This document shows positions 1-19,851 of a stretch of DNA of 64,000 nucleotides, piece after piece. A program made the position numbers and the translations under genes. Under the pieces are notes generated by a model, which searched no databases, was not told the DNA's origin, and saw only the letters and a program-made list of their open reading frames with translations. Source of the DNA: Bryobacteraceae bacterium (GTDB taxonomy: Bacteria > Acidobacteriota > Terriglobia > Bryobacterales > Bryobacteraceae); assembly GCA_035297145.1 (NCBI GenBank), contig DATGZN010000030.1, positions 6,881-70,880 on the forward strand, in the 5' to 3' direction. Each line of letters opens with the position of its first letter. Positions within the stretch are counted from its first letter, which is position 1.

Positions 1-1983
1 AGTGCCGAAGAAGGCTTCGAGATCGTGCGACGGCGGCTATTCGAGCCGCTCGCCGATCAGGCGCAATTTAAGGACCGCGACGTAGTGGCGCGGGCTTTTG
101 CAGATTTCTACCGGACTCAGCACCAGGAATTCCCGCCCGAGTGCCACGATGCCGATTACGAGAAGCGGATTAAGGCAGCTTATCCGATACACCCGGAGAT
201 TTTTGACCGGCTCTACACTGACTGGTCCACGCTCGTGAAGTTTCAGCGCACACGCGGCGTTCTCCGCCTGATGGCCGCGGTGATTCACAGCCTGTGGGAG
301 AAGGGCGACAAGAACCCATTGATTCTGCCCGCCAATATCCCTATCGACGATCCGCGCGTGCAGTTCGAACTCACGCGCTACTTGTCCGACAATTGGGTGC
401 CGATTCTTGAAAAGGACGTTGATGGCCCGAGCTCCCTGCCACTGAGGCTCGACGGGGAGGTGCCGAATCTTGGCAAATTCGCCGCTTGCCGGCGCGTGGC
501 CCGAACCATCTATCTAGGGTCGGCGCCTACGGCGACGGCCGCCAACCGTGGCATCGAGGACCGGCGCGTGAAGCTCGGGTGTGTGATGCCGGGTGAGTCT
601 CCTGCGGTATTTGGCGACGCCCTGCGACGACTCACCGCCGCCGCAACCTATCTCTATCAGGACGGGCCGCGCTATTGGTATTCGACGCAACCGACTGTTA
701 CCAAACTCGCTGATGACCGCGCGGAGCAATTTAAGCGAGACACGGATAAGGTCGTGCACGAGCTGGACAAGCGCCTGAGAGCCGATCTTCGCAAAATGGG
801 TGACTTCAAACGCGTGCATCCGATGCCGGGCTCCAGTGCCGATGTGCCGGACGACCTTGACGCACGACTTGTGGTTCTTGGCGTTGACCACGCCTACAGC
901 AAGGAGCCTGACAATGCCGCCGAGACGGCGGCCAAAGGAATTTTTGAAAAGCGCGGCGCCGCGCCGCGCCTCTACCGAAACACGATCATCTTTCTTGCCG
1001 CCGACAAGACCCGGCTGCAGGACCTGGACGAAGCTGTGCGAAAGTTCCTCGCGTGGGACTCGATCCTAGATGAGAAGGATAAGCTCGACCTCTCGCCACA
1101 CCAGGTAAAGCAGGCCGAGACGCAGAAAACGGCAGCCGACGGCGCCGTGACGGCCAGGCTTCCCGAAACGTATCAGTGGTTGCTGGTGCCAACGCAGGAG
1201 ACCCCGCAAGCCCCCGTCACGTGGCAGACAATACGTCTGTCAGGGAACGATGCGCTTGCGGAGCGTGCCAGTAAGAAGCTGAAAAACGATGAATTGCTCG
1301 TGGTCAACTTTGCCGCGTCGCGCCTTCGCATGGACATGGACCACGTACCCTTATGGCGCGGAAATCATGTGCCAATTCGCCAGCTCGTAGAGGACTTCGG
1401 TCGCTACCTCTACCTGCCGCGCTTGCAGACCACCACCGTTCTCCTGAATGCTATCCGCGCGGGGCTTGCGCTGTTGACGTGGGAGCACGACGCTTTCGCC
1501 TACGCTGAAAACTACGACGAATCTGGAGCCCGTTATCGCGGCCTTCACTCCTGCGCACAGGTGAATGTCGCCGCAGATGACACGGGCCTGCTCGTGCGGC
1601 CCGAAATAGCCAGACAGCAGATTGACCTTGAGACGGCTCCGCCTAGCCCTGCTGGCGCAGATACCGGCGATCCAAGGTCACCCGGACCCGACGGCCTGTC
1701 GCCGCAGCCGACCACTCTTCCATCCGGACCGGTTCAACCGTTAAAGCCCCAGCGGTATCACGGCACGGTCGTTCTTGACTCCGCGCGGGTTGGGCGCGAT
1801 GCCGGCAGGATCGCGGATGAGGTTGTTACCCATCTCGTCGGGCTCGTCGGATCATCGGTGCGCGTCACTTTGGAAATCGAAGCGGAGATCCCCGGCGGAA
1901 CTCCTGACAACGTCGTGCGGACGGTCACGGAGAACAGCCGGACCCTGAAGTTCGAGAGCAACAGCGGCTTCGAGACGGAGTAG
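1..1983 (+). CDS. DUF499-type (BrxC/PglY-like) defence-associated ATPase, C-terminal ~660 aa. The 5' end is outside the window.
   Basis: Frame 1 is open from nt 1 (SAEEGFEIV precedes the first Met at 25). Motifs IHPEIFDRLYTDWS and FQRTRGVLRLMA match my recollection of DUF499 proteins. A Pro-rich linker is followed by a small C-terminal domain. Stop at 1981-1983. Confidence 0.6.
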   Translation, partial: SAEEGFEIVRRRLFEPLADQAQFKDRDVVARAFADFYRTQHQEFPPECHDADYEKRIKAAYPIHPEIFDRLYTDWSTLVKFQRTRGVLRLMAAVIHSLWEKGDKNPLILPANIPIDDPRVQFELTRYLSDNWVPILEKDVDGPSSLPLRLDGEVPNLGKFAACRRVARTIYLGSAPTATAANRGIEDRRVKLGCVMPGESPAVFGDALRRLTAAATYLYQDGPRYWYSTQPTVTKLADDRAEQFKRDTDKVVHELDKRLRADLRKMGDFKRVHPMPGSSADVPDDLDARLVVLGVDHAYSKEPDNAAETAAKGIFEKRGAAPRLYRNTIIFLAADKTRLQDLDEAVRKFLAWDSILDEKDKLDLSPHQVKQAETQKTAADGAVTARLPETYQWLLVPTQETPQAPVTWQTIRLSGNDALAERASKKLKNDELLVVNFAASRLRMDMDHVPLWRGNHVPIRQLVEDFGRYLYLPRLQTTTVLLNAIRAGLALLTWEHDAFAYAENYDESGARYRGLHSCAQVNVAADDTGLLVRPEIARQQIDLETAPPSPAGADTGDPRSPGPDGLSPQPTTLPSGPVQPLKPQRYHGTVVLDSARVGRDAGRIADEVVTHLVGLVGSSVRVTLEIEAEIPGGTPDNVVRTVTENSRTLKFESNSGFETE

Positions 1984-2156
1984 GGGAGCCTTAGAGGGCA
2001 CGGCGATTGTGGCGGGCTGGCAAGGGTCCTGAAGCTGGAGGAAGTGCTTGGAATCTTGATGAAAACATCCTGCTACCCACCAGGGTGAGCAGGCTCCTGG
2101 GGAACAGCTTTGAAGCTATAAAGCATCGAAACGACTGCAGCAGCCGTTCGCCAGTC

Positions 2157-2193
2157 TTGACAATCGTCTCATAAACTGCCATAATCGTCTCAT
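2157..2193 (+). promoter_or_regulatory. Near-consensus sigma70-type promoter (TTGACA-17 nt-CATAAT) with an 11-nt direct repeat. It implies a leaderless or near-leaderless start for the AAA+ gene.
   Basis: TTGACA at 2157-2162, 17-nt spacer, CATAAT at 2180-2185, ATG at 2192. AATCGTCTCAT occurs at 2162-2172 and again at 2183-2193. Confidence 0.45.
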
Positions 2194-3349
2194 GAACAAG
2201 GACACTAGCTTCATGAGCGAGCTATTTCGTATCGTTAACGGTGCGCTTCGTCTCGACATAGACAAAGTCCGTAACTATACAGCGTTCCTCGCCGATAAAC
2301 TTGAAAAGGCAGGAGATGTAGCTTCTGCCGGACGCCTGCGCAAAATGCTCGAAGAGAGTGATCAGCAACTGCGGCCGGCCGGGGCGGCGTTTGCCAAAGT
2401 TCTGCCTGTCGATGCAGATAGCCGTTTCCCGCTCATAGAGCGGGTGAATCTAAAAACACTTTCCGAGCCTCCGGTTATGCTCGGCCAGGAGCAATGGGAC
2501 ACCGTCAACGAATTTCTGAGCATCGCGAAGAGCTATGCCCAGGCCGAAGTGAATGGCCTCACCACGTCGCTTAGCTTCTTGATGTACGGCCCGCCGGGAA
2601 CGGGGAAAAGCCGCCTCGCGCGGTACATCGCCCAGGAGCTGGGCCTTGACTTGTACGTCGCACGCCTCGATGGGTTGATCTCCTCATTCCTCGGAAGCAC
2701 GTCGAAAAACATTCGCGCTCTTTTTGACTTTGCGGCCAAGACTCCGTGTGTCCTGTTTCTCGATGAGTTCGATGCGATCGCGAAGCTGCGCGGCGACAGC
2801 CAGGAGCTGGGGGAACTGAAGCGCGTGGTGAACAGCTTCATCCAGAACCTGGATACGCTGGGCACTCAATCCATCGTGATCGCCGCGACGAACCACCAGG
2901 AACTGCTCGACTCGGCAATATGGAGGCGCTTCAGCTACCGGCTGGCGCTGGATTTTCCTACGGCGGATTTGCGCCGGAAGATGTGGGCTGCATTCATTGA
3001 GGAGTTGCAGTTCACGGCGCGGGAAATAGAGCTGCTGGTCGATCTGTCGGAAGGTTTCACCGGGTCAGACATTCACGAAGTCTGCGTGCGTCTCCACCGC
3101 CGCCGGATTACGAGGAAGGAGTTCCCCGAGCTGAAGGACGCCTTCCAGGTTCTCCAGAACATGGGCATCGGCGAAGGCGAAGACCGTCGCTTCTTATCGC
3201 TTCTGAGGGGTAAGGATGAGCATGCTGTCGCAACCAGGCTCCGTGACAGAAACGCCAAGCTATACAGTCACGCCGCTCTCGCCGATCTGTTGGGCGTTTC
3301 AAAAGCGACTGCTCATCGATGGGCGAAGGGAGTAAATACCGATGGCTGA
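2192..3349 (+). CDS. Classic-clade AAA+ ATPase with a C-terminal helix-turn-helix (IetA-like partner of the downstream subtilase).
   Basis: Walker A GPPGTGKS, Walker B VLFLDEFD, sensor-1 VIAATN, RRF arginine-finger region. C-terminal LADLLGVSKATAHRWAKG is HTH-like. 8-nt overlap with the next gene. Confidence 0.85.
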   Translation: MNKDTSFMSELFRIVNGALRLDIDKVRNYTAFLADKLEKAGDVASAGRLRKMLEESDQQLRPAGAAFAKVLPVDADSRFPLIERVNLKTLSEPPVMLGQEQWDTVNEFLSIAKSYAQAEVNGLTTSLSFLMYGPPGTGKSRLARYIAQELGLDLYVARLDGLISSFLGSTSKNIRALFDFAAKTPCVLFLDEFDAIAKLRGDSQELGELKRVVNSFIQNLDTLGTQSIVIAATNHQELLDSAIWRRFSYRLALDFPTADLRRKMWAAFIEELQFTAREIELLVDLSEGFTGSDIHEVCVRLHRRRITRKEFPELKDAFQVLQNMGIGEGEDRRFLSLLRGKDEHAVATRLRDRNAKLYSHAALADLLGVSKATAHRWAKGVNTDG

Positions 3350-5687
3350 TACACCGAGACCACCCCGGCAGGAACGCCTGCTGATAAAGGTCATCATGCC
3401 CAAACAAGGCACCGAGCGTAAGGTTGCGGGCGGCGGAGCGCCGCCTAAGCCGTTCCGGCCGGTTGACGCGAAGTACCGGGCGCGTCTTTCCAGCCAGGTT
3501 TCGGCTATACGCACCGCCATCGTTCCGCAGATCCGGACGGCCGGCGCCGCGCCCGTGCGGGTGAAGCTGCTCTCGAAGGCGGCGGCCAAAAGCCATCGGC
3601 CGGAGCATTTGTTCTCGCCTGAATCCTGCCCGATCGTGGGCGGCGGAAGCCTCGGGGAATTGTTCGTCAAGGCGACGCCGGAAGGATTGGACCGCCTCGC
3701 CGCGATGATCGAGAGCCGCGAGTCCGATCAGATGACGAAGGAGCTTTCTTGCGTTGAAACGATCGAGCCTGTGACGCCCGCCTATCGTCGCAGCGGTCTC
3801 GATGCCAAGGACCTGCTTCGCCGGAGCCCCCGCGGCAAACACGGTTTCATCACGCGGGTGGGTCTTTTCAACTTCGGCGCGGACCGCGACCAGCCCAAGT
3901 TGGTCGAAGATTTTGAAAGCACGTGCCGGAAGCGCGACATCAGGGTGCGCAGCAACCGGGGATATTCGCCGTCGAGCTTCACGTACGAAATCGAGTGCCG
4001 GAACGTCGACGATGTTGAGGCCCTGTCCCGCGTGATCGGCGTGCGTTCGATAACGCCCATGCCGCTCATTCGGACCATCCGTCCTCGGATGTTCGCGGCG
4101 AAGCCGTTGCCGCCTCTTCCGAGCGCCGATGACGTGACAGGAGACTTCCCCGTAGTGGTCGTTGTGGACAGCGGGATTTCCGACCAGATTCCCGGCCTGG
4201 AGAGCTGGGTCGTGGGGCGCGACTCTCAAGTCGCGCCGGAATACAGGAACACCGATCACGGTTCCTTCGTGGCGGGCCTCATCTGCTGGGGCGGCCAGCT
4301 TAATCCCACCATCGCCGGGCTCGACAACGGCCCGTGCGGAGTGTTCGATCTTCAGGTGATCCCGAATGAAGATCCCGCGAAAGGGGATACGCTCCCCTTG
4401 CTGGAATCAGAGTTTCTCGTCTCGCTGGACGAGGCGCTTCAGCAGCACGCCAATAGGTATAAGGTTTGGAATCTCTCGCTCGGCACGGACACTGTTTGCT
4501 CGCTCGACCAGTTTTCCAAGCTTGCCGAAGAACTCGACAATCTGCAGGAGCGATACCAGGTTTCCTTCGTCATCAGCGCCGGGAACTATGACACGCCGCC
4601 GCTCCTGGACTTCCCGCGCACGGGCGGCCAGGTGCAGGCCGGAAGGATCACCACGCCTGCCGACAGCGTCCTCGGGATCACTGTTGGCTCGGTGTCGCAC
4701 GTCGATTACAAGAAGGACGGGCCAAAGGAGCATCACCCTTCGGCCTTCTCGCGGCACGGCGCCGGGCCGAACTATGTGATCAAGCCTGACCTCATTCATT
4801 ACGGCGGATCGTGCTCTACGGACCTATCGCACATTTCCGGAATTCGTTCGGTGAACGGGACCGGCTCCGCTGAGAATGTTGGGACGAGCTTCGCTACGCC
4901 ACTTGTCGCCCGGACCCTTGCGCAGATCTATCATCAGGTCACGCCGACACCGTCGCCGGTGCTTGCCAGAGCCCTGCTGACGCACCACGCGCGCGATCCG
5001 CGTACCGCTCTCCGGGTGCCTGACGGAGACGAGAATTTCTTCGGGTTTGGCTTGCCTGCCCCGGTGCCGTATTGCCTGGAATGCACCCCGCATACGTCGA
5101 CGCTTGTTTTCGACGACGTGCTCCGGCCAGGGTATTTTCTCGAATGGAATGATTTCCCTTATCCGCCCTCGCTGAGCCGTGACGGGAAATATTTCGGCGA
5201 GATATGGATGACGGTGGCCTTCGCGCCGGCACGCGGCGCGAGATGGGGGACGGAATACTGTGAAACCCACATCGATGCTCATTTTGGGGTCTACCGGACC
5301 CAGAAATCGCGTGAGACAGGGCTGGTCAAAGCGAAACCAATATTTGTCGGCCTGGTGCCCCCGGAGCACAAGAACGTGGGCGAGCTTTACGAGTCCTACC
5401 AGGTGGAAAAGCTGCGCAAGTGGGCTCCGGTCCGGACGTATTACGGCGATCTCGGTGAGAACGGTGAGCGCGGCGATCGCTGGCGCATGATGGTTCGCCT
5501 TCTCACGCGGCATGGGATCGAGGATGAAGAAGCTTTCAAGCCGCAGCCTTTCTCTTTGATCGTGACGATTTCCGACCCGGAGAAGAAGGCACGGGTCTAT
5601 GACGAGATGGCGCAGATCGTTCGCAACCGCTTCCAGTCGCAGAACCTCACGGTTCGCGCGGCGGCGCGCGTTCGAGCAAAGCAATGA
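3342..5687 (+). CDS. S8 (subtilisin-family) serine peptidase, IetS-like.
   Basis: Catalytic motifs VVVVDSGIS (Asp), DHGSFVAGLI (His), NLSLG (oxyanion Asn) and GTSFATPLVAR (Ser). GAAGGGAG SD upstream. Start overlaps the stop of the AAA+ gene (ATGGCTGA). Confidence 0.9.
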   Translation: MADTPRPPRQERLLIKVIMPKQGTERKVAGGGAPPKPFRPVDAKYRARLSSQVSAIRTAIVPQIRTAGAAPVRVKLLSKAAAKSHRPEHLFSPESCPIVGGGSLGELFVKATPEGLDRLAAMIESRESDQMTKELSCVETIEPVTPAYRRSGLDAKDLLRRSPRGKHGFITRVGLFNFGADRDQPKLVEDFESTCRKRDIRVRSNRGYSPSSFTYEIECRNVDDVEALSRVIGVRSITPMPLIRTIRPRMFAAKPLPPLPSADDVTGDFPVVVVVDSGISDQIPGLESWVVGRDSQVAPEYRNTDHGSFVAGLICWGGQLNPTIAGLDNGPCGVFDLQVIPNEDPAKGDTLPLLESEFLVSLDEALQQHANRYKVWNLSLGTDTVCSLDQFSKLAEELDNLQERYQVSFVISAGNYDTPPLLDFPRTGGQVQAGRITTPADSVLGITVGSVSHVDYKKDGPKEHHPSAFSRHGAGPNYVIKPDLIHYGGSCSTDLSHISGIRSVNGTGSAENVGTSFATPLVARTLAQIYHQVTPTPSPVLARALLTHHARDPRTALRVPDGDENFFGFGLPAPVPYCLECTPHTSTLVFDDVLRPGYFLEWNDFPYPPSLSRDGKYFGEIWMTVAFAPARGARWGTEYCETHIDAHFGVYRTQKSRETGLVKAKPIFVGLVPPEHKNVGELYESYQVEKLRKWAPVRTYYGDLGENGERGDRWRMMVRLLTRHGIEDEEAFKPQPFSLIVTISDPEKKARVYDEMAQIVRNRFQSQNLTVRAAARVRAKQ

Positions 5688-5726: not shown

Positions 5727-6188
5727 ATGTCTGAACAAGAACACAAGCACGAGGTACGCATTCATATCGATCAGCACCCCTACGAATCGCCGAACCCGAC
5801 CACGGGCGCGGCGCTCTACGCGCTAGGCAACGTTCCAGCGGGCCTTGAACTTTACCGGGAAGTGAGCGGCGACAGGGAAGACAAGCCGATCGAGAACGGG
5901 CCGGAGGTCGTCCACCTGAAGGAGGACGAGCACTTCCACAGCGGCCCGCCCAAGACATACACGATTTACGTGAACGGCGAACAGAAAGTGGTAACCACCA
6001 AAACCGTCTCCTTCGCCGAGATCGCCAAGCTCGCGTATCCGATACCGCCGACGGGCGACAACATTCTGTATACGGTTTCCTACGAAGATGGTCCGCCTGC
6101 CAACCCGCAGGGCTCGATGAAGGAGGGCGAAACCGTCAAGGTCAAGAACGGGATGATCTTCAATGTCACAGCGACCGATAAGTCGTAG
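5727..6188 (+). CDS. Multiubiquitin-domain protein (two tandem beta-grasp/ubiquitin-like repeats).
   Basis: AAGGAG SD 7 nt upstream. Two internally similar halves (VRIHIDQHPY... and YTIYVNGEQK...). The C-terminal ...[16 protein letters not shown] matches my memory of the multiubiquitin (Multi_ubiq) family ending. Confidence 0.8.
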   Translation: MSEQEHKHEVRIHIDQHPYESPNPTTGAALYALGNVPAGLELYREVSGDREDKPIENGPEVVHLKEDEHFHSGPPKTYTIYVNGEQKVVTTKTVSFAEIAKLAYPIPPTGDNILYTVSYEDGPPANPQGSMKEGETVKVKNGMIFNVTATDKS

Positions 6189-7347
6189 CGCGGACCTGAA
6201 AAAACTGCGCGACGAAGGATATGACCTGGAAATCCGATCCGGCTGTTTGCTGGTGAAAGATGTGCCGTATGTGAACTCCCTCAAGGAGGTCAAACGCGGA
6301 ATCCTGGTCATGAAGCTGGTGCTCGCGGACGACGAGACGGCGCGTCCCGACGACCACGTGGCCTACTTTTCAGGCGATCATCCGTGCTTTGAGGACGGTA
6401 CCGAAATCGCGAAGATCAAGCACGGGAGCGGCGAGCGCTCGCTGGCTGAAGGCGTGGTGATACAGCATTCGTTTTCGGCAAAGCCCAAGCCGCACGATTC
6501 CTACCCGGATTACTATGCCAAGGTGACGTGGTACGTGAGTATCCTTTCCGGCCCCGCCTGGAGGATCGACAAGTCCACGGCGAAGACCTTCCCGTTCATC
6601 GAGCCGGAGAAGGATGACGACGAGCCGTTCAATTACACCGATACCGCTTCCAGCAGGGCCGAAATCGTCGCCGTTACTAATAAGATGGCGCTGAAGAAGA
6701 TCGCGATCGTGGGCATGGGTGGGACCGGGTCTTATGTGCTGGATCTCGTCGCGAAGACGCCCGTCCGGAAAATTCACATCTATGACGGGGACGCCTTCCT
6801 GCAGCACAATGCGTTCCGGTCGCCAGGCGCGCCTTCGGGCGATGACCTGCGGGCCAAGCAGTCCAAGGTGACGTACTTCAAAAACCTTTACGCCCGGATG
6901 CACAATGGCATCGTCGATCACGCCGTTTATATCGATGCCGGGAATGTGGAAGAACTACGCGGCATGGATTTCGTGTTTCTTTGTGTCGACAAGGGCAGCG
7001 TGAAAAAAGTGATCGTCGAAAAACTCGAAGAGTTTAACGTCCCGTTCAGCGACGTGGGCATGGGCATCCAGTTGAAGAACGGAGCCCTGGGCGGCATCGT
7101 GCGGGTTACTGCGAGCACGGAGAAGAAGCGCGACCACTTTCGCGGCAGGGTTTCCTTCGGGGACGCCGCGAGCGGAAACGAATACGATCGCAACATCCAG
7201 ATCGCCGACATGAACGCCCTGAATGCCGCTCTCGCCGTCATCAAGTGGAAGAAGCTCTTCGGCTTCTACCGCGATCTTAAATCCGAGCATCATAGCCAGT
7301 TCAGCATCGACACCAACCTGCTCCTCAACGAAGATAGGCCGCAATGA
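6163..7347 (+). CDS. ThiF/E1-like adenylyltransferase with a ~170-aa N-terminal extension (possibly a prokaryotic E2-like domain).
   Basis: Rossmann motif [19 protein letters not shown] followed by IYDGDAF. The N-terminal [28 protein letters not shown] is typical of E1s linked to multiubiquitin. 26-nt overlap with the Ubl gene. Confidence 0.8.
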
Positions 7348-7799
7348 AACAGGGAATCGTCCTCAAGCACGAATTTGTCGAGTTCATCCCTGGCGAACTC
7401 AAGGAGGGGACGATTTACATTTCGATCCGGTTTGGGACGGCATCGCACCTGTGTTGTTGCGGCTGCGGCAACAAGGTCGTCACGCCGCTGCGACCCACGG
7501 ACTGGAAGCTCATTTTTGACGGCAAGACCGTTTCGCTCGACCCCTCGATCGGGAACTGGAGTTTCGCGTGCCGGTCTCACTACTGGATAAGGAATAACAG
7601 GGTTCGATGGGCGGCTCAGTGGTCTCCGGAAGAGATCGCGGCCGGAAGAGCCCATGACCGGTTTGCGAAGGATAGATATTTCGACACCGCTGACACGGCG
7701 ACGGATGGTGCGCTGAAGAAAGCTCCAGTGACGGTGGAAACCGCCAAGGCGGGACCGCGTTGGTGGTTGAGGATAAAGAAGTGGTGGCAGCGCTCATGA
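7344..7799 (+). CDS. DUF6527-family protein (Cys-cluster small protein of Ubl-conjugation operons).
   Basis: ATGA overlap with the E1 stop. Cys cluster [15 protein letters not shown] and the GNW motif (SIGNWSF), which I recall as the hallmark of DUF6527. Confidence 0.7.
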
Positions 7800-7835: not shown

Positions 7836-9005
7836 ATGATACCTAAGCCGATAGACCAAATCACCGAAGCAGACCTCAGCGACCTCGTAAGCGCTAGCGT
7901 TGCCGAACGAAAAACACTCGATTACAAACAACAACTGCCGGATACGAACGATGCCGGCAAGAGAGAACTGCTGGCAGACGTTTCATCTTTTGCGAACACG
8001 GCGGGCGGAGATCTCGTTTTCGGCATGACGGAGAGCGCCGGCGTGCCGACAGCCATACCTGGGGTCCAGATCGGAAACACCGACCAGGAGATTTTGCGGT
8101 TCGACAACATCATCCGGGATGGGCTGTCCCCCCGCATCCGCCACACAACGAGGGCGGTGCCTCTGACGAACGGCGGTTATGTCCTGATCATCCGATCGGA
8201 GCGGAGCTGGTACGGTCCTCACCGAGTAATTTTCAAAGGCGACAGCAGGTTTTACGGGCGCACCACCAACGGCAAATATGAGCTTGATGTAACCGACTTG
8301 CGCAATGCGTTTCTCTTCGCAAGCGCCGTGACCGAAAAGATTTCAGCTTTCAGGGCAGAACGGGTCATCGCGTTGGAAAACGGCCAGCCGCTCGCCCCGC
8401 TCGCGGAAGGTCCGAAACTCGTTATCCATTGCATGGCCCTCGAATCCTTCGGAGCCAGGCCGCAATATGACGTCCTGGCCCTTGACGGAATTCAGCCCAT
8501 GTATGCGACACGCCTGAGCGGTTGGGGAGCGCGCATAAACTTTGAAGGCCGGATTTTCATTGCGTCGGGCGAACCCTCTAGCGCGTATACGCAAATCTAC
8601 AGGAACGGAGTGATAGAAGCCGTTCGCGTCGGCGTCTTGAACAGCCCCCAAAGTCCAGGCGTCATACCCAGTCTTGCGTACGAGGAAGCCGTGGTAGGCT
8701 ATCTGCCGCAGTGTTTCCAGATCATGAGGCAATTGGGATGTAGTCCGCCGGTTCTGGTTGGGATCACATTGATCGGCGTACGGGGGCTGAAGTTGGCGGT
8801 TGACGTGATGGTTGAATTGTCGATGGGGGGCGCCAAGGCAATCGACCGAGACGTCCTTATGCTGCCTGAGATCGTTGTCGAAGATCTTTCCACTCCGGCC
8901 GCGCCGCTGCTGAAGCGGACCCTCGACCTGGTTTGGAACGCCTGCGGATTTCCCTCGTCGCCATATTTCGATGCCGCTGGAAAATGGATGGGGCGAACCC
9001 GCTGA
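7836..9005 (+). CDS. AlbA_2 (Schlafen-like) domain protein with an uncharacterised ~260-aa C-terminal region.
   Basis: N-terminal ERKTLDYKQQL...LLADVSSFANTAGGDLVFGM...YVLIIRSERSW...FYGRT follows the AlbA_2/'divergent AAA' pattern (E-x-K ... AFANT-GG-L-GV ... Y-R). Confidence 0.7.
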   Translation: MIPKPIDQITEADLSDLVSASVAERKTLDYKQQLPDTNDAGKRELLADVSSFANTAGGDLVFGMTESAGVPTAIPGVQIGNTDQEILRFDNIIRDGLSPRIRHTTRAVPLTNGGYVLIIRSERSWYGPHRVIFKGDSRFYGRTTNGKYELDVTDLRNAFLFASAVTEKISAFRAERVIALENGQPLAPLAEGPKLVIHCMALESFGARPQYDVLALDGIQPMYATRLSGWGARINFEGRIFIASGEPSSAYTQIYRNGVIEAVRVGVLNSPQSPGVIPSLAYEEAVVGYLPQCFQIMRQLGCSPPVLVGITLIGVRGLKLAVDVMVELSMGGAKAIDRDVLMLPEIVVEDLSTPAAPLLKRTLDLVWNACGFPSSPYFDAAGKWMGRTR

Positions 9006-9043
9006 AGCGGAAGATCTGGGTACGGCCGGGGTGTCACGAACCA

Positions 9044-9502
9044 ATGATTGTCGAGTTTAATTTGCATCCGACGCTCGGTGAGGGGGTCTACGCACACGTT
9101 TTCCAAATAGATGATAAGGCATACAAGCTGTTCTTGGCCTTCCCTTCTCATCACAGCGAGGAGAAGCGTAGATCAACTTTCCAGTCGCAATGTGCGGCGT
9201 ATCAGCGTGCCGGTTCTGACCCTGATCTAAAGGAACACGTTGCTACTTTCTACGGCACTTGCGTCATTGAGGACGTGATTGATAAAACAGGACAGAGCAT
9301 CAAGGGCAACTATATGCTGGACTGTTGCTATGTTCTCGAAGCGCTGAACGGCAGCAAAACGAAGGTTCTGGCAGTCCGTGATGCCTTCAGCTATGTGGGC
9401 GAAGCTTACGTCGCCTTCCATCAGAAGGGTTTCACTTTGGCGGACGCCGATATTTTCAATTTTGACGACCCGGAGCGGTTTAAGTTTGTTGACTTTCACT
9501 GA
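9044..9502 (+). CDS. Small (152 aa) protein with protein-kinase-like motifs, ending right after a DFG-like motif.
   Basis: LGEGVYAHVF (Gly-loop-like), AYKLF (beta3 Lys-like), LADADIFN (xxDxxxxN catalytic-loop-like), VDFH at the C-terminus. Start is uncertain: ATG at 9044 (after the upstream stop), 8984 or 8933. Confidence 0.4.
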   Translation: MIVEFNLHPTLGEGVYAHVFQIDDKAYKLFLAFPSHHSEEKRRSTFQSQCAAYQRAGSDPDLKEHVATFYGTCVIEDVIDKTGQSIKGNYMLDCCYVLEALNGSKTKVLAVRDAFSYVGEAYVAFHQKGFTLADADIFNFDDPERFKFVDFH

Positions 9503-9604
9503 ACGATGGCCACTCAGGCCGCGCGGGCGTGGCCCGTGCGGAGACGGGGGACTTCGCCGTCGGCGTGAACAGCGCGGGGGCCGGGGAGAGGACGATTTCG
9601 GTGA

Positions 9605-10405
9605 TCATGGGTGCGCTCCTGGTGAAGGTTTCAAGCGATCGACGATCCTTAAAAGCTGGCTGGCGAATACGATCACCTCGGCGGCGTCTTCCGGATGCGT
9701 CGGGACGTGGCGGTGACTTTGTGGGTTCTTATAAAGACCGATCGCGCCCGCGAAGAGATTGGCCATCGCTTCCTGTTCGGCGGCCGGTAGCTGCGTATCC
9801 GTAAGCGGGCCGGGGGTTACCGCCTGGCCCTTCTTCTCGGCGGGCTTGAAGGCGTCGCGCATCAGCTCCGTGCCGTAGTCATTGGGTCCGAAGCTGCCTC
9901 CGGCGCGGACGGCGACTTCTACTTCCCGGAAGGCCTGGAAGACGGCCGTGTCGTATTCGCCGCGCATGAAAGCCGGATATACCTTGCTGGCGATGAGCGG
10001 GTGAAGCTGGGCTTTTGGCAACAGGCCCGCTTTGCGATAGGCCCCAAATTCATCGCGGGATGTGATCTGCTTGGCCCGCCGCGACACGAGGAACCAGCCC
10101 CCGGTCGAGCTTGGCTTTTCCACGAGTAAGCCCGCGCTCTGAAGCCATGCCCAGGCCTCCATGAGCGCCAGGTTCACGTCGGGTTGCCGGTTGCCGTACT
10201 CCGGCTGCTCTCGGGCGTTCGTGGGGGTCAGCGAATTAAAGAAATTGTGGCGGCTGATGCCGCCGTGCTGGTGGACGGTGTTCCCGGACACGCCCTCATA
10301 GCTGTTGAGGTGCAGGAGCAGGATGCCGGCGAGTTCTTCCACGGCGAGATCGAGGAGGTCTGCGGCATTCGGGACGAAAGACGATAAAGAGCGATACATG
10401 GTCAT
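9605..10405 (-). CDS. TIGR02391 (Hypoth_Ymh)-type protein, possibly HEPN-related.
   Basis: C-terminal half LHPLIASKVYPAFMRGEYDTAVFQAFREVEVAVR...LFAGAIGLYKNPQSHRHV...AAEVIVFASQLLRIVD fits the TIGR02391 pattern, with K where the usual RNP-x-x-H motif has R. ATG at 10405 overlaps the upstream stop (ATGA). Confidence 0.65.
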   Translation of the reverse strand: MTMYRSLSSFVPNAADLLDLAVEELAGILLLHLNSYEGVSGNTVHQHGGISRHNFFNSLTPTNAREQPEYGNRQPDVNLALMEAWAWLQSAGLLVEKPSSTGGWFLVSRRAKQITSRDEFGAYRKAGLLPKAQLHPLIASKVYPAFMRGEYDTAVFQAFREVEVAVRAGGSFGPNDYGTELMRDAFKPAEKKGQAVTPGPLTDTQLPAAEQEAMANLFAGAIGLYKNPQSHRHVPTHPEDAAEVIVFASQLLRIVDRLKPSPGAHP

Positions 10406-11106
10406 TGCACCGGGGGAACGCCGCGGACGATGACCAGGCGGCGGTTGTTGCGGGCGTCCCAGTCGAGCTCGATGCGGCTTAACGGCTCGGTGCATTGCTC
10501 GTCGCAGAACTGCGTGAAGTTAAACGTCACGTTGAAGGGATCGACGCTGACGACGGTGGCCATGCCCTCGCGATCAACGCCCGGCGCCCACTCCGGATAG
10601 TGGTTGCCGAGGCGCTTGTTGACGGTGCGGACGGTGACGTATTTGCCTTTGCACTTCAGCAGCTCTCCGGCCGGGCTGCAATGCGAGGTGAGGAGGTCAC
10701 GATAGAGACTGTCCGAGGCCTTCACGCTCCGGGAACCGGAGCGAATGTAGGCCGGGCCTGCAAAATGCGGCTTGTCCTTGCTATAGGAGATTTCGACGGC
10801 GACAACGCGCTTCCCGTCGAGATCCAGGACGCTCTTCCCCGGACGGATGGCCGGATAGCACTCTTCCCCGGCTTCGCCGACGCGCCTCTGCACTTTCTCG
10901 GGGTCATCGACTCCGAGGAGAGCGCCGGTCTTGTCGTCGACCCCGATGAACAGTACGGCCGTTTCCGTTTCTGGCAGGGAATTCGAAAAGGCGACCAGCG
11001 TCTGACGCAGCTCGTGGCCTTTGACGGATTGCGGCTTTCGTTCGACGAAATTATCTTCGGAGGGGCGTGTCGCCAGGCGAGCGGTGAGCCGTTGTTCGGT
11101 TGTCAT
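10402..11106 (-). CDS. AlbA_2 (Schlafen-like) domain protein, second copy.
   Basis: EDNFVERKPQS...LVAFSNSLPETETAVLFIGVDD...GKRVVAVEISYSKDKPHFAGPAYIRSGSRS matches the AlbA_2 pattern. The ATG at 11106 gives an ATGA overlap with the upstream stop (an alternative ATG lies at 11124). Confidence 0.7.
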   Translation of the reverse strand: MTTEQRLTARLATRPSEDNFVERKPQSVKGHELRQTLVAFSNSLPETETAVLFIGVDDKTGALLGVDDPEKVQRRVGEAGEECYPAIRPGKSVLDLDGKRVVAVEISYSKDKPHFAGPAYIRSGSRSVKASDSLYRDLLTSHCSPAGELLKCKGKYVTVRTVNKRLGNHYPEWAPGVDREGMATVVSVDPFNVTFNFTQFCDEQCTEPLSRIELDWDARNNRRLVIVRGVPPVQ

Positions 11107-14126: not shown

Positions 14127-15071
14127 TCAGGCCGGCGCGCTCTCAGGTTTCGCCTGCAGGCCGTGCAGATAGTCTGCGGCCCGCTGTGCATGAGCCGCCG
14201 CGCTGAAAATCGCGCGCTTGTCTTCGCGCAGCACGTTGAGCCAGTGGCCGACGTAATCGGCGTGGTCCGCGCGGATATCAGGCGTGATGCCGAGGTCGGC
14301 GCAAAGGAAGGCGGCGCCAAGTTCCGCGACCAGCTCTTCGCGGCTGTACCCGGTATCGCCGAAGCGTTTCGCGCCGAAATCCCGGTTCAGCCGGCTTGGA
14401 TGTTTGGTGTAATGCGTGAGCTCATGCAGCGCCGTAGCGTAATAGCTTTCCTTGTCCTTGAACGCCTCGAACGGCGGCATCTGGATCATGTCTCTTGCCG
14501 GTGCGTAGAACGCCATGTTCCCGCCGTGCTGGATCGTCGCGCCGGTGGCGGCCAGGAAGCGGTCCGCCTCATCGATGCGCTCGGATGCTGGTAGCGGATT
14601 TTCCGGCCGTGCGTAATAGTGCTGCGGCAGGCCTTCGATCTGCTCGCAGTTGAAGACCGTGTAACCCTTCATGAACGGGATGTCACGCTCGACGTCGTCG
14701 CCGTTCTCGTCGCGCTCGGTGCGCGTCACGGTATTGGCGAAGACCACGAGGGAACCGTGCTCGCCCTTGCGGACGTGGGCGTCGAGCTCAAGCGCCTGCT
14801 TGAATGTCATCCAGATCGGCGTGGTGTAGCCCTTGGCCATGGCCTCGCCCCAGAGAAGCAGGATATTGATGCCGCGGTACGGCGTGCTGTTGTGGCGCAG
14901 CGGCCTGGTGATCTTGCCGGCCGCGTGTTCGGCGGGGCAGGGTTTCATCCACGGGCGGATGCCATTTTCGAGATCGGCGATGATGCGGTCGGTTACGCGG
15001 GAGTAAACGTCCTTGGTCAGCCGCTGTTCGCTGTCTTGCGTCTTCGATTGTTCTTTCGTCAGTGTTGCCAT
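14127..15071 (-). CDS. ardC: ArdC-like anti-restriction protein (N-terminal ssDNA-binding domain plus zincin metalloprotease domain).
   Basis: N-terminal VTDRIIADLENGIRPWMKP...PYRGINILLLW...TFKQA pattern. C-terminal HExxH (ALHELTHY) followed by EELVAELGAAFL. Confidence 0.85.
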   Translation of the reverse strand: MATLTKEQSKTQDSEQRLTKDVYSRVTDRIIADLENGIRPWMKPCPAEHAAGKITRPLRHNSTPYRGINILLLWGEAMAKGYTTPIWMTFKQALELDAHVRKGEHGSLVVFANTVTRTERDENGDDVERDIPFMKGYTVFNCEQIEGLPQHYYARPENPLPASERIDEADRFLAATGATIQHGGNMAFYAPARDMIQMPPFEAFKDKESYYATALHELTHYTKHPSRLNRDFGAKRFGDTGYSREELVAELGAAFLCADLGITPDIRADHADYVGHWLNVLREDKRAIFSAAAHAQRAADYLHGLQAKPESAPA

Positions 15072-15536: not shown

Positions 15537-17318
15537 ATGCGGCTTTCGCGACTGCAGATTGCCAATTTCCGAAACTTCCAGAGCATCGACATCGCTCTGA
15601 GCGAACATGCGATCTTCGTGGGCGAGAACAAAGTCGGGAAGTCGAACCTGATTTACGCGATTCGGCTGGTCCTCGATCCGTCGTTGCCGGATTCCCTTCG
15701 TCAACTCCGCATCGAGGACTTCTGGGACGGTGTTCCGCGCCCGTTGTCGAAGGATGACCGAATTGAGATTTCCATCGATATCGCTGACTTCGAGGACGAC
15801 CCGAAGCAGCTTGCGGTGCTCTGCGAGCATTTGGTGGCGCACGAGCCGATGGTCTCGCGCCTTACCTACGCGTTCGGTCCATTCAGAGCCGAGGGCGAGG
15901 AAGCGCCGAAGGACGCCGATTATGAGTGGGTGATTTACGGCGGTGATCGGATCGAGAACATCGTGGCAGGCGATGTGCGGCGACGGCTCCCCTTAGAGTT
16001 TCTGGCAGCGCTGCGCGATGCCGAGGCGGACCTCGGGAACTGGCGGCGGTCTCCGCTTCGCCCCCTGCTGGACCGGGCGGCGGCACAAATCGATCCTAAG
16101 ACGCTCGGAGGGATCGCCGCGTCGGTCACGGAGGTAACGAAGTCGGTTACGGAGACCGATGCGATCAGCGCGCTGTCGCAACAGATCAAAGATCGGCTGG
16201 AGGAGATTGGCGGGCCGTCGCAGGGGTTGGATACGTCGCTGGGATTTTCTCCGGCGGATGCCGACCGCCTGCTGCGGGCGCTGCGTATCTTCATCGACGA
16301 GGGTAAACGCGGGATCAGCGAGGCAAGCCTCGGTTCGGCCAACATCATCTATCTGGCGCTGAAGCTCCTGGAGATTGAGCAGCTCGTTGACGAGGGCGCG
16401 CGCGATCATACGTTTCTCGCAATTGAAGAACCGGAGGCGCATCTGCATCCATACCTTCAGCGGCTCGTGTATCGGGATGTGTTGCGGCGCCGAGCCCACC
16501 AAGAGGGAGAAGAAGCGGAAGGCGCGAACGAGCGCAGGACCATTCTGGTGACCACGCACTCCCCGCACATCGTGAGCGTCTCGCCGCTGGAATCTCTCGT
16601 TGCGCTGCGCAAGGTTGACGGCGCAACAGAGGCCGCGTCGGCTGCGGAATTGGAGTTCGAGGAAGCAGATCGGGCTGATATTGAGCGGTATCTGGATGTA
16701 TCGCGAGGCGAAATGCTGTTCGCCAAGGGCGTTTTACTGGTTGAGGGCGATGCGGAAGCGTATTTGGTGCCGGCTCTCGCCCGGTTGATGGACAAAGATC
16801 TCGACCAACTGGGGATTGTGGTCTGCTCGATTTCAGGGACTCATTTCGGGCCGTATGTGAAGCTGCTGAAAGGCCTGAACATTCCCTCTGCTGTGCTCAC
16901 AGATCGCGATCCGAGCGACCAGGGAGACCGTGGCGTCGCGAGAGTGCTCCAGCTTCTGCAGGATACTGTGCCCGCCAAAATCCTGGCGAAGTACCCGACC
17001 GAAGAGAAGCAGCTCGACCTGGCGCTTAAGCGGGGACTCTTCTTGAACGATCATTGTCTTGAGGTAGACCTGTTCAAGGCGGGTCGGCATAAGAGCATGT
17101 GCGGCGTAATCGCTGAATTGACGGAGAATGGCGCTGCGAAGAAGCGAGCCGGGGAATGGTCTACAAAGCCAGCGAATATGGATGCCGCCCAACTCGTAAA
17201 AGACATTACCGCGATCGGCAAGGGGCGCTTTGCTCAACGGCTCGCCAGCATCATCACAAAGGACATCTGTCCGAAGTACATCGGGAGCGCGATTACGTAT
17301 GTTGCGGAGCGGTGCTAG
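15537..17318 (+). CDS. gajA: OLD-family ATP-dependent nuclease (GajA-like; ABC-ATPase plus TOPRIM).
   Basis: LQIANFRNF...FVGENKVGKSNL (Walker A), FLAIEEPEAHLHP (Walker B/D-loop region), LLVEGDAEAYLVP (TOPRIM). GAAGGGGA SD. Confidence 0.8.
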   Translation: MRLSRLQIANFRNFQSIDIALSEHAIFVGENKVGKSNLIYAIRLVLDPSLPDSLRQLRIEDFWDGVPRPLSKDDRIEISIDIADFEDDPKQLAVLCEHLVAHEPMVSRLTYAFGPFRAEGEEAPKDADYEWVIYGGDRIENIVAGDVRRRLPLEFLAALRDAEADLGNWRRSPLRPLLDRAAAQIDPKTLGGIAASVTEVTKSVTETDAISALSQQIKDRLEEIGGPSQGLDTSLGFSPADADRLLRALRIFIDEGKRGISEASLGSANIIYLALKLLEIEQLVDEGARDHTFLAIEEPEAHLHPYLQRLVYRDVLRRRAHQEGEEAEGANERRTILVTTHSPHIVSVSPLESLVALRKVDGATEAASAAELEFEEADRADIERYLDVSRGEMLFAKGVLLVEGDAEAYLVPALARLMDKDLDQLGIVVCSISGTHFGPYVKLLKGLNIPSAVLTDRDPSDQGDRGVARVLQLLQDTVPAKILAKYPTEEKQLDLALKRGLFLNDHCLEVDLFKAGRHKSMCGVIAELTENGAAKKRAGEWSTKPANMDAAQLVKDITAIGKGRFAQRLASIITKDICPKYIGSAITYVAERC

Positions 17319-19128
17319 GTTTTCGCTGCTCTACCGGGCCGCGGCCGAGGATCTTCGGGACAACCCCGGACAGTGGCAGGCATACGAATCGACCGGCAAC
17401 TGTGTGGTGCTGGCCGGCCCTGGCAGCGGCAAGACGAAGACCCTCACAATCAAACTGGCGCGGATGATGGCGGAGGATGTCGAGCCTCCTCGCGGCATCG
17501 CCTGCATCACCTACAACTCCGAGTGTGCGGCGGAGCTCGGGCGCCGCCTGGACAAACTCGGAATTCAAGAATCCTCGCATGTATTCATCGGCACGATACA
17601 CAGCTTCTGCCTTAAGCATGTGGTGGTTCCGTACGGCAGGCTGGCAGGGCTCGAAATGCCCACCGATGTGAAGGTGGCGACGCCGGATGAACAGGAGCGC
17701 GTTTTCGCAGAAGCCGTAGCAGAGCTATACGGGCCGAACCGGGACCCGACCTATCTGCGCACCGACTTCGACCGGTATCGCCGGACGCATCTGGACCGGG
17801 ATCAACCGGAGTGGCTGGGGGATGATGCGGAAACGGCGCAGCTAATCGAAATCTACGAACGGAAATTGCGGGAGCGCGGGGCAATTGATTTCGACGACAT
17901 GATGTTACTCGGTCTTCGGCTGATCGAGGGAAACCAGTGGGTCCGGTCGTGTTTGCAGGCACGGTTTCCGATCATTGCCGTGGATGAATATCAGGATCTG
18001 GGACTCGCACTGCACAGGATGGTAGTAAGTCTCGTATACGACGCCGGCATCCGCCTGTTCGCGGTGGGCGACGCCGACCAATCGATTTACGGTTTCGCGG
18101 GAGCGATGCCGCACCTGCTTCAGGAACTGTCGGAAATGGAGGGCATGGAGACGGTTCCCCTGCGCTTCAACTACCGCTCTGGTCTGGAAATTGTTGAGGC
18201 GTCGGAAGCGGCTCTGGGCGAGGAGCGCGGATACGAGGCCAAGGCCGGGTACGCCGGCACGATCCACTTTTACAAACTCCCGAAGGGGCTGGAAGAGCAA
18301 GCCGAGCAGATTGCGAAGGTGCTGATCCCTGGCGCACTGGGGCGCCGCAAAGGCCGGACGCTGGGCGACATCGCGGTGCTCTACGTTGACAAGAACGATG
18401 GAGACGTCATTGAAGGGCAGGTGAGTGCGGCGGGGATGCAGTTTATCCGGGTCGATCGAGGCGCACCTTATCGTAAAACGAAGTTCACGCGATGGCTCGA
18501 AGAGTGCGCCGCATGGTGCGCCGGAGGCTGGCGGAGTGGCACGCCGCGTTTGTCCTCGCTGTTGTCGCGCTGGCAGCTGTTCAATCCCTCCATACGGTCG
18601 GAGAAAGAGCGGAGCCAACTGAAGGTGGATCTCGTGCAATTCTTGTTCGGTCACCGGGACGAGAAACTCTCGCTTAGGGATTGGCTCGGAGCGATGGTCG
18701 ATCAGTGTATAGCCCGCGCTTTTGCGGCAGATCCGACGCAGCGGGATGAGGCGGAGGCCCTCGAAGTGTTGCGGCGGGCGTGCGGCCCGAAGGGCAAACT
18801 GGCTAAGCTGACCGTGGGCGCATTCGGAGGCCAGGCGGGCGCGTCTGACCATGTAAACCTGATCACGCTCCACAGCGCCAAGGGCATGGAGTTTGACATT
18901 GTTCTGATGATGGGCCTCGAACAGGGTCGCATCCCGAAGTGGGATGCCAAGACCGCCGAGAAGAAGGGCGAAGCGCGGCGGCTGTTCTATGTGGGTCTGA
19001 CGAGGGCCAGGCACGAAGTGCACTTGCTGTGCTCGGGATTTACGCTGAACCGGAAAGGCCGGCGCTTTGATAACGGCGCCTCCGAATTCATGAGAGAAGT
19101 CTACCGCAAGGTCAAGAAACAGTCTTGA
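17299..19128 (+). CDS. gajB: UvrD/PcrA-type superfamily-1 helicase (GajB-like).
   Basis: VLAGPGSGKTKT (Walker A), AVDEYQD (motif II), TLHSAKGMEFD and LFYVGLTRAR (motifs V/VI). The ATG at 17299 overlaps the nuclease gene by 20 nt. Confidence 0.8.
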   Translation: MLRSGARFSLLYRAAAEDLRDNPGQWQAYESTGNCVVLAGPGSGKTKTLTIKLARMMAEDVEPPRGIACITYNSECAAELGRRLDKLGIQESSHVFIGTIHSFCLKHVVVPYGRLAGLEMPTDVKVATPDEQERVFAEAVAELYGPNRDPTYLRTDFDRYRRTHLDRDQPEWLGDDAETAQLIEIYERKLRERGAIDFDDMMLLGLRLIEGNQWVRSCLQARFPIIAVDEYQDLGLALHRMVVSLVYDAGIRLFAVGDADQSIYGFAGAMPHLLQELSEMEGMETVPLRFNYRSGLEIVEASEAALGEERGYEAKAGYAGTIHFYKLPKGLEEQAEQIAKVLIPGALGRRKGRTLGDIAVLYVDKNDGDVIEGQVSAAGMQFIRVDRGAPYRKTKFTRWLEECAAWCAGGWRSGTPRLSSLLSRWQLFNPSIRSEKERSQLKVDLVQFLFGHRDEKLSLRDWLGAMVDQCIARAFAADPTQRDEAEALEVLRRACGPKGKLAKLTVGAFGGQAGASDHVNLITLHSAKGMEFDIVLMMGLEQGRIPKWDAKTAEKKGEARRLFYVGLTRARHEVHLLCSGFTLNRKGRRFDNGASEFMREVYRKVKKQS

Positions 19129-19194: not shown

Positions 19195-19821
19195 TTACCT
19201 CGTCGCGCTCTTGCGGTTCAGGAGTTTTTGTCCATCGGGACGCAGAGAGCCATCTGGCGCCACGTGGCGGTAAAGCGTCTGGCGGGTAACACCCAGTTCC
19301 GTGCAGAGATCCCGTACGCTGGTTTCCGAGTTGCCCATCGATGCCCGTGCCAGGCGTAGCTTGGCGGAGGTCATCTTGTAGGGCCTGCCCCCGCGACGCC
19401 CGCGCGCCCGCGCTGCAGCCAGTCCCGCTTTCGTCCTTTCAACGATCAGTTCGCGCTCGAACTCCGCCAAGGCAGCGAAGAACCCGAAGACCAATTTTCC
19501 GCTCGGCGTCGTGGTGTCGATGGTGGCGCCGTGGCCGGTGAGCACTTTGAAGCCGATACCGCGTATGGTGAGCTCGTGGACGGTGTTGACGAGGTGGCGT
19601 AGATTGCGGCCGAGCCTATCGAGTTTCCAGACCAAGAGTGTATCGCCGCGGCGGAGAGCCTTCAGACAGGCGGTCAGGCCGGGCCGGTCGTCGCGCTTGC
19701 CCGAAGTCCTGTCCTCGTAAATGCGCACCAGGCTGACGCCGGCCGCCACCAGAGCGTCGCGTTGGAGGTCGGTTACCTGGCTGCCGTCCGCCTTGCTCAC
19801 GCGCATGTAGCCCACCAGCAT
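19195..19821 (-). CDS. Serine recombinase (resolvase/invertase family).
   Basis: LVGYMRVSKADGSQ (catalytic Ser), LLVWKLDRLGRN, C-terminal HTH VRDLCTELGVTRQTLYRHV. Start chosen at the MLVGY Met. Confidence 0.9.
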   Translation of the reverse strand: MLVGYMRVSKADGSQVTDLQRDALVAAGVSLVRIYEDRTSGKRDDRPGLTACLKALRRGDTLLVWKLDRLGRNLRHLVNTVHELTIRGIGFKVLTGHGATIDTTTPSGKLVFGFFAALAEFERELIVERTKAGLAAARARGRRGGRPYKMTSAKLRLARASMGNSETSVRDLCTELGVTRQTLYRHVAPDGSLRPDGQKLLNRKSATR

Positions 19822-19851
19822 CGTGTTCTCCGGTCTTGTTATGGTCACTGT

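Follow-up and report, generated by a model that had tools for sequence, protein, structure and literature searches.

The gene examined here encodes a 152-aa kinase-like protein (hereafter mini-kinase) and lies within a 64,000-nt stretch of contig DATGZN010000030.1 from a Bryobacteraceae bacterium, the whole of which is referred to as the window. Directly upstream, on the same strand, is a gene encoding a 389-aa protein of the prokaryotic Schlafen type (pSlfn). We find that the mini-kinase is a real, conserved gene whose product belongs to a rare and so far unnamed family of pared-down kinase-like proteins, that it combines a kinase-like predicted fold with conservation of the Lys, Asp and Asp residues typical of kinases, and that it has no conserved partner. 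The best explanation of the locus, to which we assign a probability of roughly 0.6, is that pSlfn and the mini-kinase are two independent single-gene modules that are neighbors by chance in a defense island (Hma, Iet, Bub, pSlfn, Gabija, integrase) residing on an integrative element.

A family of kinase-like proteins ending at the DFG position

A preliminary description of the window, made from the sequence alone, had reported two consecutive open reading frames (ORFs) and had read the second as a kinase-like protein on the basis of the motifs LGEGVYAHVF, AYKLF, LADADIFN and VDFH. Both ORFs are borne out at the coordinates listed in Table 1, and all four motifs are found in the 152-aa protein. 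Comparison with homologs favors a start at 9044 over one at 8984, the Met aligned with the former being the start of most close homologs; public databases contain a 152-aa as well as a 172-aa gene model.

The 152-aa protein has no match in Pfam, NCBIfam, PHROGs or PADLOC. A word-indexed search recovered ten close homologs (47–93% identity), seven of which are 144–161 aa long, and a profile search run exhaustively over 1.84 billion representatives yielded 388 clusters at E ≤ 1e-3, or 186 at E ≤ 1e-10. These clusters, together with the key residues kept across the family alignment, establish the conservation of the ORF, on which the kinase-like reading depended. As had been noted in the preliminary description, the protein stops at the DFG position: it ends two residues past Asp150 and is devoid of the activation segment and the rest of the C-lobe. 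Because nearly all family members recovered in the 388-cluster search are 150–190 aa long, and the matched region ends just a few residues short of their C-terminus, this stop is a trait of the family and not a truncation of the window copy. A truncated pseudogene was likewise ruled out by the same lengths being found family-wide. The extra length of the few longer homologs comes from N-terminal extensions or fused domains and not from a full kinase C-lobe. Two such fusions, with one representative each, join the kinase-like region to an N-terminal XRE-type helix-turn-helix (HTH) domain (HTH_31; P0090) or to an N-terminal “8xMP” octameric-membrane-protein domain (PF24838; P0146); they give no clear functional lead.

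Conservation was assessed in a 125-member family alignment, in which residues are numbered as in the window protein. Lys28, Asp134 and Asp150 are each conserved in at least 93% of the members (counts in Table 1), alongside G14 (112/125) and G103 of the hinge (114/125). Conservation of the key residues is well above what chance would give. The D-x4-N pattern pointed out previously stands for the window copy, where Asn139 is present; it is not a feature of the family, in which this Asn is found in 30 of the 125 members. Position 136 is Ser in 90 members and Asp in 14, the window copy having Asp136. The tail past the DFG-like Asp has a median length of 12.5 aa (range 2–42), and the subgroup of the window protein has the shortest, of 2 aa. 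We also observed a family-specific motif, [YF]-L-L-D-C-C-Y-x-[LM]-E (aa 90–99), in the strand preceding the hinge, with D93, C94, C95 and Y96 present in 95, 90, 106 and 98 of the 125 members, respectively. We know of no counterpart of this motif in canonical kinases.

The family is rare. Its members come mostly from soil and peat metagenomes, and among 401 genomes sampled evenly from the phylum it is found in a single one, that of the window; in the 400 others, the only matches were to the N-lobe, inside two proteins of more than 600 aa. The family is also absent from whole-genome searches of 60 relatives, from 5 picked genomes and from 401 genomes of a second phylum. A scan of genome contigs with the alignment of close homologs found no relative, and tblastn searches of the mini-kinase against plasmids and phages returned no match. 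The metagenome scan recovered three short contigs only; of the viral scans, three pointed to one and the same IMG/VR contig and a fourth gave none.

Table 1 Coordinates of the features discussed, in window positions
Feature	Position	Strand	Basis or remarks
pSlfn gene, 389-aa prokaryotic Schlafen-type protein	7836..9005	+	ORF, translation, PF04326, homologs of ~387 aa
Schlafen/AlbA_2 nuclease domain, aa 24–150	7905..8285	+	Pfam; includes Ex4DxK, E24...D29.K31 (nt 7905–7928)
pSlfn C-terminal conserved domain (~240 aa), presumed sensor	8286..9002	+	full-length conservation, no library match
Spacer between pSlfn and mini-kinase genes, 38 nt	9006..9043		site scan; bridged by metatranscriptome contig
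Mini-kinase gene, 152-aa minimal kinase-like protein	9044..9502	+	ORF, homologs, model, GC
Lys28 codon, equivalent of β3 “VAIK” lysine, in AYKLF	9125..9127	+	121/125; aligns with lysine of NleH1 VLKMF
Gln49 codon, αC Glu position	9188..9190	+	E (92) or Q (33) only; model helix 39–58
[YF]-L-L-D-C-C-Y-x-[LM]-E motif	9304..9343		family-specific
Asp134 codon, catalytic-loop Asp equivalent	9443..9445	+	120/125; G-I-x3-D context
Asp150 codon, DFG Asp equivalent	9491..9493	+	116/125; aligns with Asp of NleH1 “IDI”; stop two residues on
HmaC-like DUF499 ATPase, then IetA/IetS	1–5687	+	HmaC cut by window start (PADLOC E 2.8e-210); AAA+ ATPase and S8 subtilase (IetS E = 0)
Type II Bub operon	5727–7799	+	complete; genes overlap or abut
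Hypoth_Ymh/TIGR02391 HEPN-like protein	9605–10495	-	weak PADLOC match to PD-Lambda-3_B
Second AlbA_2 protein, 240 aa	10402–11124	-	E-x4-S-x-K, with Ser for the second acidic residue of the motif found in Schlafen proteins
ArdC-N + MPTase-PolyVal anti-restriction protein	14127–15071
Gabija-like pair, OLD-family AAA_15/TOPRIM ATPase	15537–17318
Gabija-like pair, UvrD helicase	17230–19128
Serine resolvase	19195–19848
Tyrosine integrase	21606–22787

Predicted fold and relation to known kinases

AlphaFold (AF2) modeling of the mini-kinase from the 125-sequence alignment gave a mean local confidence (pLDDT) of 96.5 and a global fold score (pTM) of 0.88; a run with a shallow alignment of 11 sequences (pLDDT 41) was discarded. 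An independent model of the mini-kinase from the ESM Atlas (pTM 0.87) matches structures of APH, RIO1 and Pkinase. In the model, N-lobe strands are followed by a helix (residues 39–58) and further strands, the hinge, a short helix, a second helix (116–127) and two short strands flanking the region of D134 and D150. The top 50 Foldseek matches in the Protein Data Bank (PDB) are all protein kinases, and searches of a viral structure library likewise return kinases. Consistently, a VIA-align search of 48,161 chains, independent of Foldseek and with alignments spanning model residues 1–152 or nearly so, gave Z scores of 9.7 for BRAF, 9.4 for OspG and for Rio2, 9.3 for RIOK3, 9.0 for Rio1, 8.9 for the RNA kinase Ark1, 8.4 for HopBF1, 8.3 for NleH1, 8.1 for ArkI and for Bud32, and 8.0–8.1 for APH(2''). 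The RIO, Bud32 and aminoglycoside phosphotransferase matches are those against which the kinase-like reading of the preliminary description had proposed to compare the protein, and they uphold that reading. A protein-kinase-like fold extending from the N-lobe to the DFG Asp is therefore well supported by modeling. The traits of the protein-kinase-like superfamily that are present comprise the bilobal fold (in the model), the β3 Lys, the catalytic-loop Asp and the DFG Asp; absent after the latter are the activation segment and helices αF–αI.

When the family profile was compared with the sequences of the PDB, the only significant match was NleH1 (E 8.8e-4), with OspG-like and NleH2 chains at E 0.022; the alignments cover the Gly-loop/Lys block and the block from the hinge to the DFG position. 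NleH1, NleH2 and OspG (PDB 4lrj, 4lrk, 4q5h) resemble the mini-kinase in having a small kinase core of ~160–170 aa without an activation loop, and the structural matches of NleH1 and OspG extend over 115–119 residues. However, NleH and OspG run on for ~33–37 residues past the DFG-like Asp (model residue 152 corresponds to OspG 159 and NleH1 260), whereas the mini-kinase stops after 2; the Asn of D-x4-N is not conserved in the mini-kinase family; and NleH and OspG are secreted by enteric pathogens as type III effectors, whereas the mini-kinase is a cytoplasmic protein of what is probably a peat bacterium.

Loss of the C-terminal part of the kinase fold has been described for Kinase-PolyVal (PF18762), a domain of phage and plasmid polyvalent proteins that lost the whole C-terminal subdomain, kept the ATP-binding and phosphotransfer residues, and is predicted to phosphorylate host proteins (Iyer et al. 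2017, PMC5512222). The mini-kinase shares with it the missing C-terminal subdomain and the retained catalytic residues, as well as the phage and mobile-element conflict contexts and the occurrence of stand-alone versions (PMC5512222). It differs in that the catalytic Asp is preceded by no conserved His (Y, L or H occupies position 132) and by no insert between the two, and also in distribution: the Kinase-PolyVal lineages are those of Verrucomicrobia–Chlamydia and Bacteroidetes prophages, whereas the mini-kinase family is mostly of soil and peat metagenomes. Membership in PF18762 was rejected, as hmmscan gave no match at E ≤ 0.1 and none was found genome-wide at E ≤ 1.

RIO1, RIO2 and Bud32, which are among the best structural matches, also lack the activation loop. 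RIO and Bud32 carry a Ser or Thr two residues past the catalytic Asp and act largely as ATPases. The equivalent residue in the mini-kinase family, position 136, is predominantly the same Ser, although not in the window copy. Unlike the mini-kinase, RIO and Bud32 keep the Asn and the C-lobe helices past the DFG position and are universal housekeeping genes with hidden Markov models (HMMs) of their own; when these HMMs were run against the 125 family members, only two matched a Bud32 model, weakly (E 0.021). Pkinase (PF00069) matched one of the 125 (E 0.021), and eukaryotic-type kinases differ from the mini-kinase in carrying both the DFG...APE activation segment and helices αF–αI. YrbL-PhoP_reg (PF10707), exemplified by the 210-aa YrbL of Escherichia coli, is likewise a small stand-alone kinase-like bacterial protein, but ~55 aa longer. 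Its feature score in the ESM Atlas was 0.95, and hhalign aligned the N-lobe alone (M-I-x-L...G-x-G...K...R-R...Y...G) with an E value of 3e-4 and a probability of only 39%. At the level of the HMM, PF10707 was rejected as well, there being no match to the mini-kinase or to its genome. As judged by the respective models, the family is not a member of PF18762, PF10707, RIO, Bud32 or Pkinase; it is an unnamed family among C-lobe-less kinase-like domains.

Phage polyvalent proteins and a few pathogen effectors provide the known examples of kinase cores without a C-lobe. To our knowledge, there has been no demonstration of how ATP binding, stable folding and substrate recognition are achieved by a core ending at the DFG Asp. 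The family described here is a convenient minimal model for this problem, being unnamed, fairly diverse (388 clusters), confidently modeled and ~150–160 aa long, with the Lys/Asp/Asp residues kept, and its sequence similarity to NleH/OspG, although weak, is significant and forms a bridge to these kinases.

Two probably separate modules

The upstream neighbor is a recognizable Schlafen protein. The AlbA_2 pattern that had been reported at its N-terminus corresponds to a match of aa 24–150 to Pfam PF04326 (SLFN_AlbA_2; E 1.8e-13), and its translation contains E24-x4-D29-x-K31, that is, the Ex4(E/D)xK motif that defines prokaryotic Schlafen nucleases as their catalytic motif and that is required, as determined by mutation, for phage defense by RorSlfn5 (PMC13056530). 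E24 and K31 are invariant in 105 pSlfn homologs, with position 29 being D or E. The family is large, with more than 1,182 full-length homologs of ~387 aa in bacteria and archaea, the closest of which come from metagenome-assembled genomes of Bryobacterales and Solibacteraceae. The last ~240 residues have no match in Pfam, NCBIfam or PADLOC and are conserved over their whole length, ending in DLVWNACG; an ESM Atlas search with this part returned unnamed clusters only and no model, and a comparison of the pSlfn family profile with the PDB gave weak Schlafen matches (E 0.27–0.7). The protein shares with the published pSlfns the N-terminal Slfn/AlbA_2 domain with its Ex4(E/D)xK motif, a fused C-terminal domain, the single-gene organization and the location in a defense island, but its C-terminal domain matches no named family; 55 pSlfn architectures have been published (PMC13056530). 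In the published scheme, the C-terminal domains are phage sensors, 17% of pSlfns have unclassified ones, and the systems consist of single genes (PMC13056530). By analogy, the 389-aa protein is likely a single-gene Schlafen defense system with an unclassified sensor domain, which probably senses a phage component and triggers tRNA cleavage.

The preliminary description had proposed that the mini-kinase may work with this Schlafen-like protein, and comparison of gene neighborhoods did not bear this out. We fetched 80 loci of pSlfn homologs (35–79% identity, with up to 8 kb of flanking sequence). None of the 80 contains a mini-kinase at E ≤ 1, none contains BubA, BubBD or BubE, and no neighbor family occurs in more than six of them, leaving no common neighbor. 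Conversely, none of the four foreign mini-kinase loci, namely, the three short metagenome contigs and the IMG/VR contig (five contexts with that of the window), has an AlbA_2 gene, a Ubl (ubiquitin-like protein) gene or any common neighbor. Furthermore, the mini-kinase has the lowest GC content (0.49) and third-codon-position GC content (GC3; 0.58) of 17 island genes, its neighbors having 0.57–0.64 and 0.64–0.80, respectively, which points to a separate origin. There is no comparative evidence that pSlfn and the mini-kinase act together. This also has a consequence for annotation, with Iet, Bub, pSlfn and the mini-kinase resolved as four separate adjacent systems.

As for activity, the mini-kinase is predicted to keep a five-stranded N-lobe (with the Gly-rich loop, the β3 Lys and αC), the hinge, αE, a shortened catalytic loop with Asp134, β7–β8 and the metal-binding Asp150. 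ATP-Mg would bind in the cleft that the N-lobe forms with what is left of the C-lobe, where K28 with E/Q49 would position the phosphates, D150 would hold the metal, and D134 would serve in phosphotransfer or hydrolysis. The γ-phosphate would then be passed to a substrate or hydrolyzed, as in RIO/Bud32. The substrate would dock on the face that is exposed because the C-lobe is missing, unless a partner supplies that face. The position of the window copy in a defense island and that of a homolog in a prophage accessory slot (see below) suggest a role in phage–host conflict.

Both genes are represented in RNA libraries. The DNA runs with the window stretch are peat metagenomes which, together with the origin of the closest pSlfn homologs, make a peat acidobacterium the probable host. 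Contigs from four peat metatranscriptome runs of one study, 100% identical to the window, cover positions 8703–9088 and 9194–9994. Contigs over 9194–9994 are the deepest (depth 6–21) and run from the mini-kinase gene, of which they contain the 3′ half, across the convergent intergenic region into the 3′ end of Ymh, whereas the region between 2.6 and 5.0 kb (IetS) is uncovered in all four runs. Such uneven coverage suggests RNA rather than contaminating DNA; the contigs give neither strand nor transcript ends.

Alternative explanations

Several points weigh against the above account. A defense role of the mini-kinase is suggested by its association with a single island and a single prophage. 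In the window copy, Gln occupies the αC position and the tail is the shortest of the family, so that this protein may be a weak enzyme or a mere nucleotide binder, and the metal-binding Asn of canonical kinases is kept by just 30 of the 125 members. The pSlfn and mini-kinase genes are on the same strand and 38 nt apart, a sequence scan detected no promoter- or terminator-like site in the spacer, and one metatranscriptome contig (8721–9088) bridges it. Finally, there are only four foreign contexts, with near relatives of the strain not among them, which leaves room for a lineage-specific pairing of pSlfn with the kinase.

One alternative, which we consider unlikely although it has a real chance of holding for the window copy, is that the mini-kinase has no catalytic activity and serves as a nucleotide sensor or scaffold in the manner of a pseudokinase. 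The replacement of the αC Glu by Gln49 in the window copy and the variable catalytic-loop Asn are consistent with this possibility, as is the absence of the αF helix that anchors the spines, with only two residues left past the DFG Asp. However, the near-invariance of K28, D134 and D150 in 125 diverse members argues for chemistry and not for binding alone. In addition, NleH, OspG and HopBF1 are active minimal kinases, and activity is assumed for further kinases that lack the C-lobe (Iyer, Burroughs, Anand, de Souza, Aravind 2017, PMC5512222).

Rather improbable is a functional partnership between the mini-kinase and the adjacent Schlafen protein, in which case the pair would be a two-gene system, either with the RNase gated through phosphorylation or ATP binding or with the mini-kinase as an antitoxin-like regulator. 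The tight arrangement of the two genes and the contig spanning their junction are what such a partnership would predict. Identical copies of pSlfn and of the mini-kinase are on record from similar numbers of contigs (29 and 13 + 17, respectively), the longest of which is in both cases the same one, of 272,782 bp, but this agreement reflects only repeated assemblies of one strain. A prediction of the complex of the two proteins scored 0.00, below the mark, and weighs neither way. Against the partnership stand the mutual absence of the two genes from each other's loci (0/80 and 0/4), the far greater abundance of the pSlfn family, the sharp drop in GC at the kinase gene, and the action of published pSlfns as single genes (PMC13056530).

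It is highly unlikely that the mini-kinase is an accessory output of the Bub operon located upstream, that is, an OspG-like kinase switched on by a Ubl or an E2~Ubl conjugate. The attraction of this idea is that NleH1 and OspG are the closest sequence relatives with solved structures, OspG also being among the best structural matches, and that OspG is activated by ubiquitin and E2~Ub (PMC3585378, PMC11078946); moreover, BubE and the mini-kinase are encoded on the same strand, the latter 1.2 kb further downstream. The preliminary description had, in a similar vein, raised the possibility that the gene is the tail end of the Ubl operon. However, the Bub set in the window is complete as published: it encodes a Multi_ubiq protein (BubA), a DUF6791+ThiF E2–E1 fusion (BubBD) and a DUF6527 protease (BubE), and the published Type II Bub operon consists of these three genes, without a kinase. 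BubE is above the family cut-off in 17 of the 401 genomes of the phylum, and the 16 Bub-bearing genomes other than that of the window have no mini-kinase family member anywhere. In seven syntenic Bub loci with the order BubA–BubBD–BubE, neither pSlfn nor the mini-kinase follows BubE. To this can be added the absence of Ubl genes near the four foreign kinase loci and the position of the pSlfn gene between BubE and the mini-kinase. We give very little credence to the broader proposal that the mini-kinase is activated by BubA or BubA~BubBD, which would constitute a bacterial Ubl-to-kinase link in antiphage defense and make the family an environmental source of the OspG/NleH effector kinases.

That the 152-aa ORF is no real gene, being instead a chance ORF or the decayed remnant of a full-length kinase, as its low GC content and lack of matches in curated family libraries might indicate, is effectively refuted by the hundreds of same-length homologs with conserved motifs found in the homolog and family searches and by the confident fold model, in agreement with the RNA-library contigs covering the gene and the lack of a full kinase C-lobe in the longer homologs.

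Genomic context

The island comprises, in order, HmaC, IetA/IetS, Bub, pSlfn, the mini-kinase, an AlbA_2 gene and a Ymh/HEPN-like gene (both on the minus strand), MerR, ArdC, a Gabija-like pair, a resolvase and an integrase (Table 1). Hma and Iet represent two further known defense systems located directly upstream of Bub. The island is probably an integrative mobile element.

The homolog from the viral scans, a protein of 162 aa, is encoded on the plus strand of the prophage-like IMG/VR contig UViG_3300047160_035141 (our locus L008), where it is the last gene of a three-gene cassette encoding proteins of 134 aa and 225 aa and the kinase. A single base separates the 225-aa gene, the product of which has PHROG 18578 as its sole match, from that of the kinase. 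The cassette (8890–10489, plus strand) has tail genes of the minus strand on one side and an excisionase-like HTH gene on the other, which is a typical prophage accessory slot.

The second AlbA_2 gene of the island and its Ymh neighbor may constitute a recurring pair. In another locus (L034), a Ymh homolog (E 2.4e-65) lies directly upstream of a homolog of the 389-aa pSlfn.

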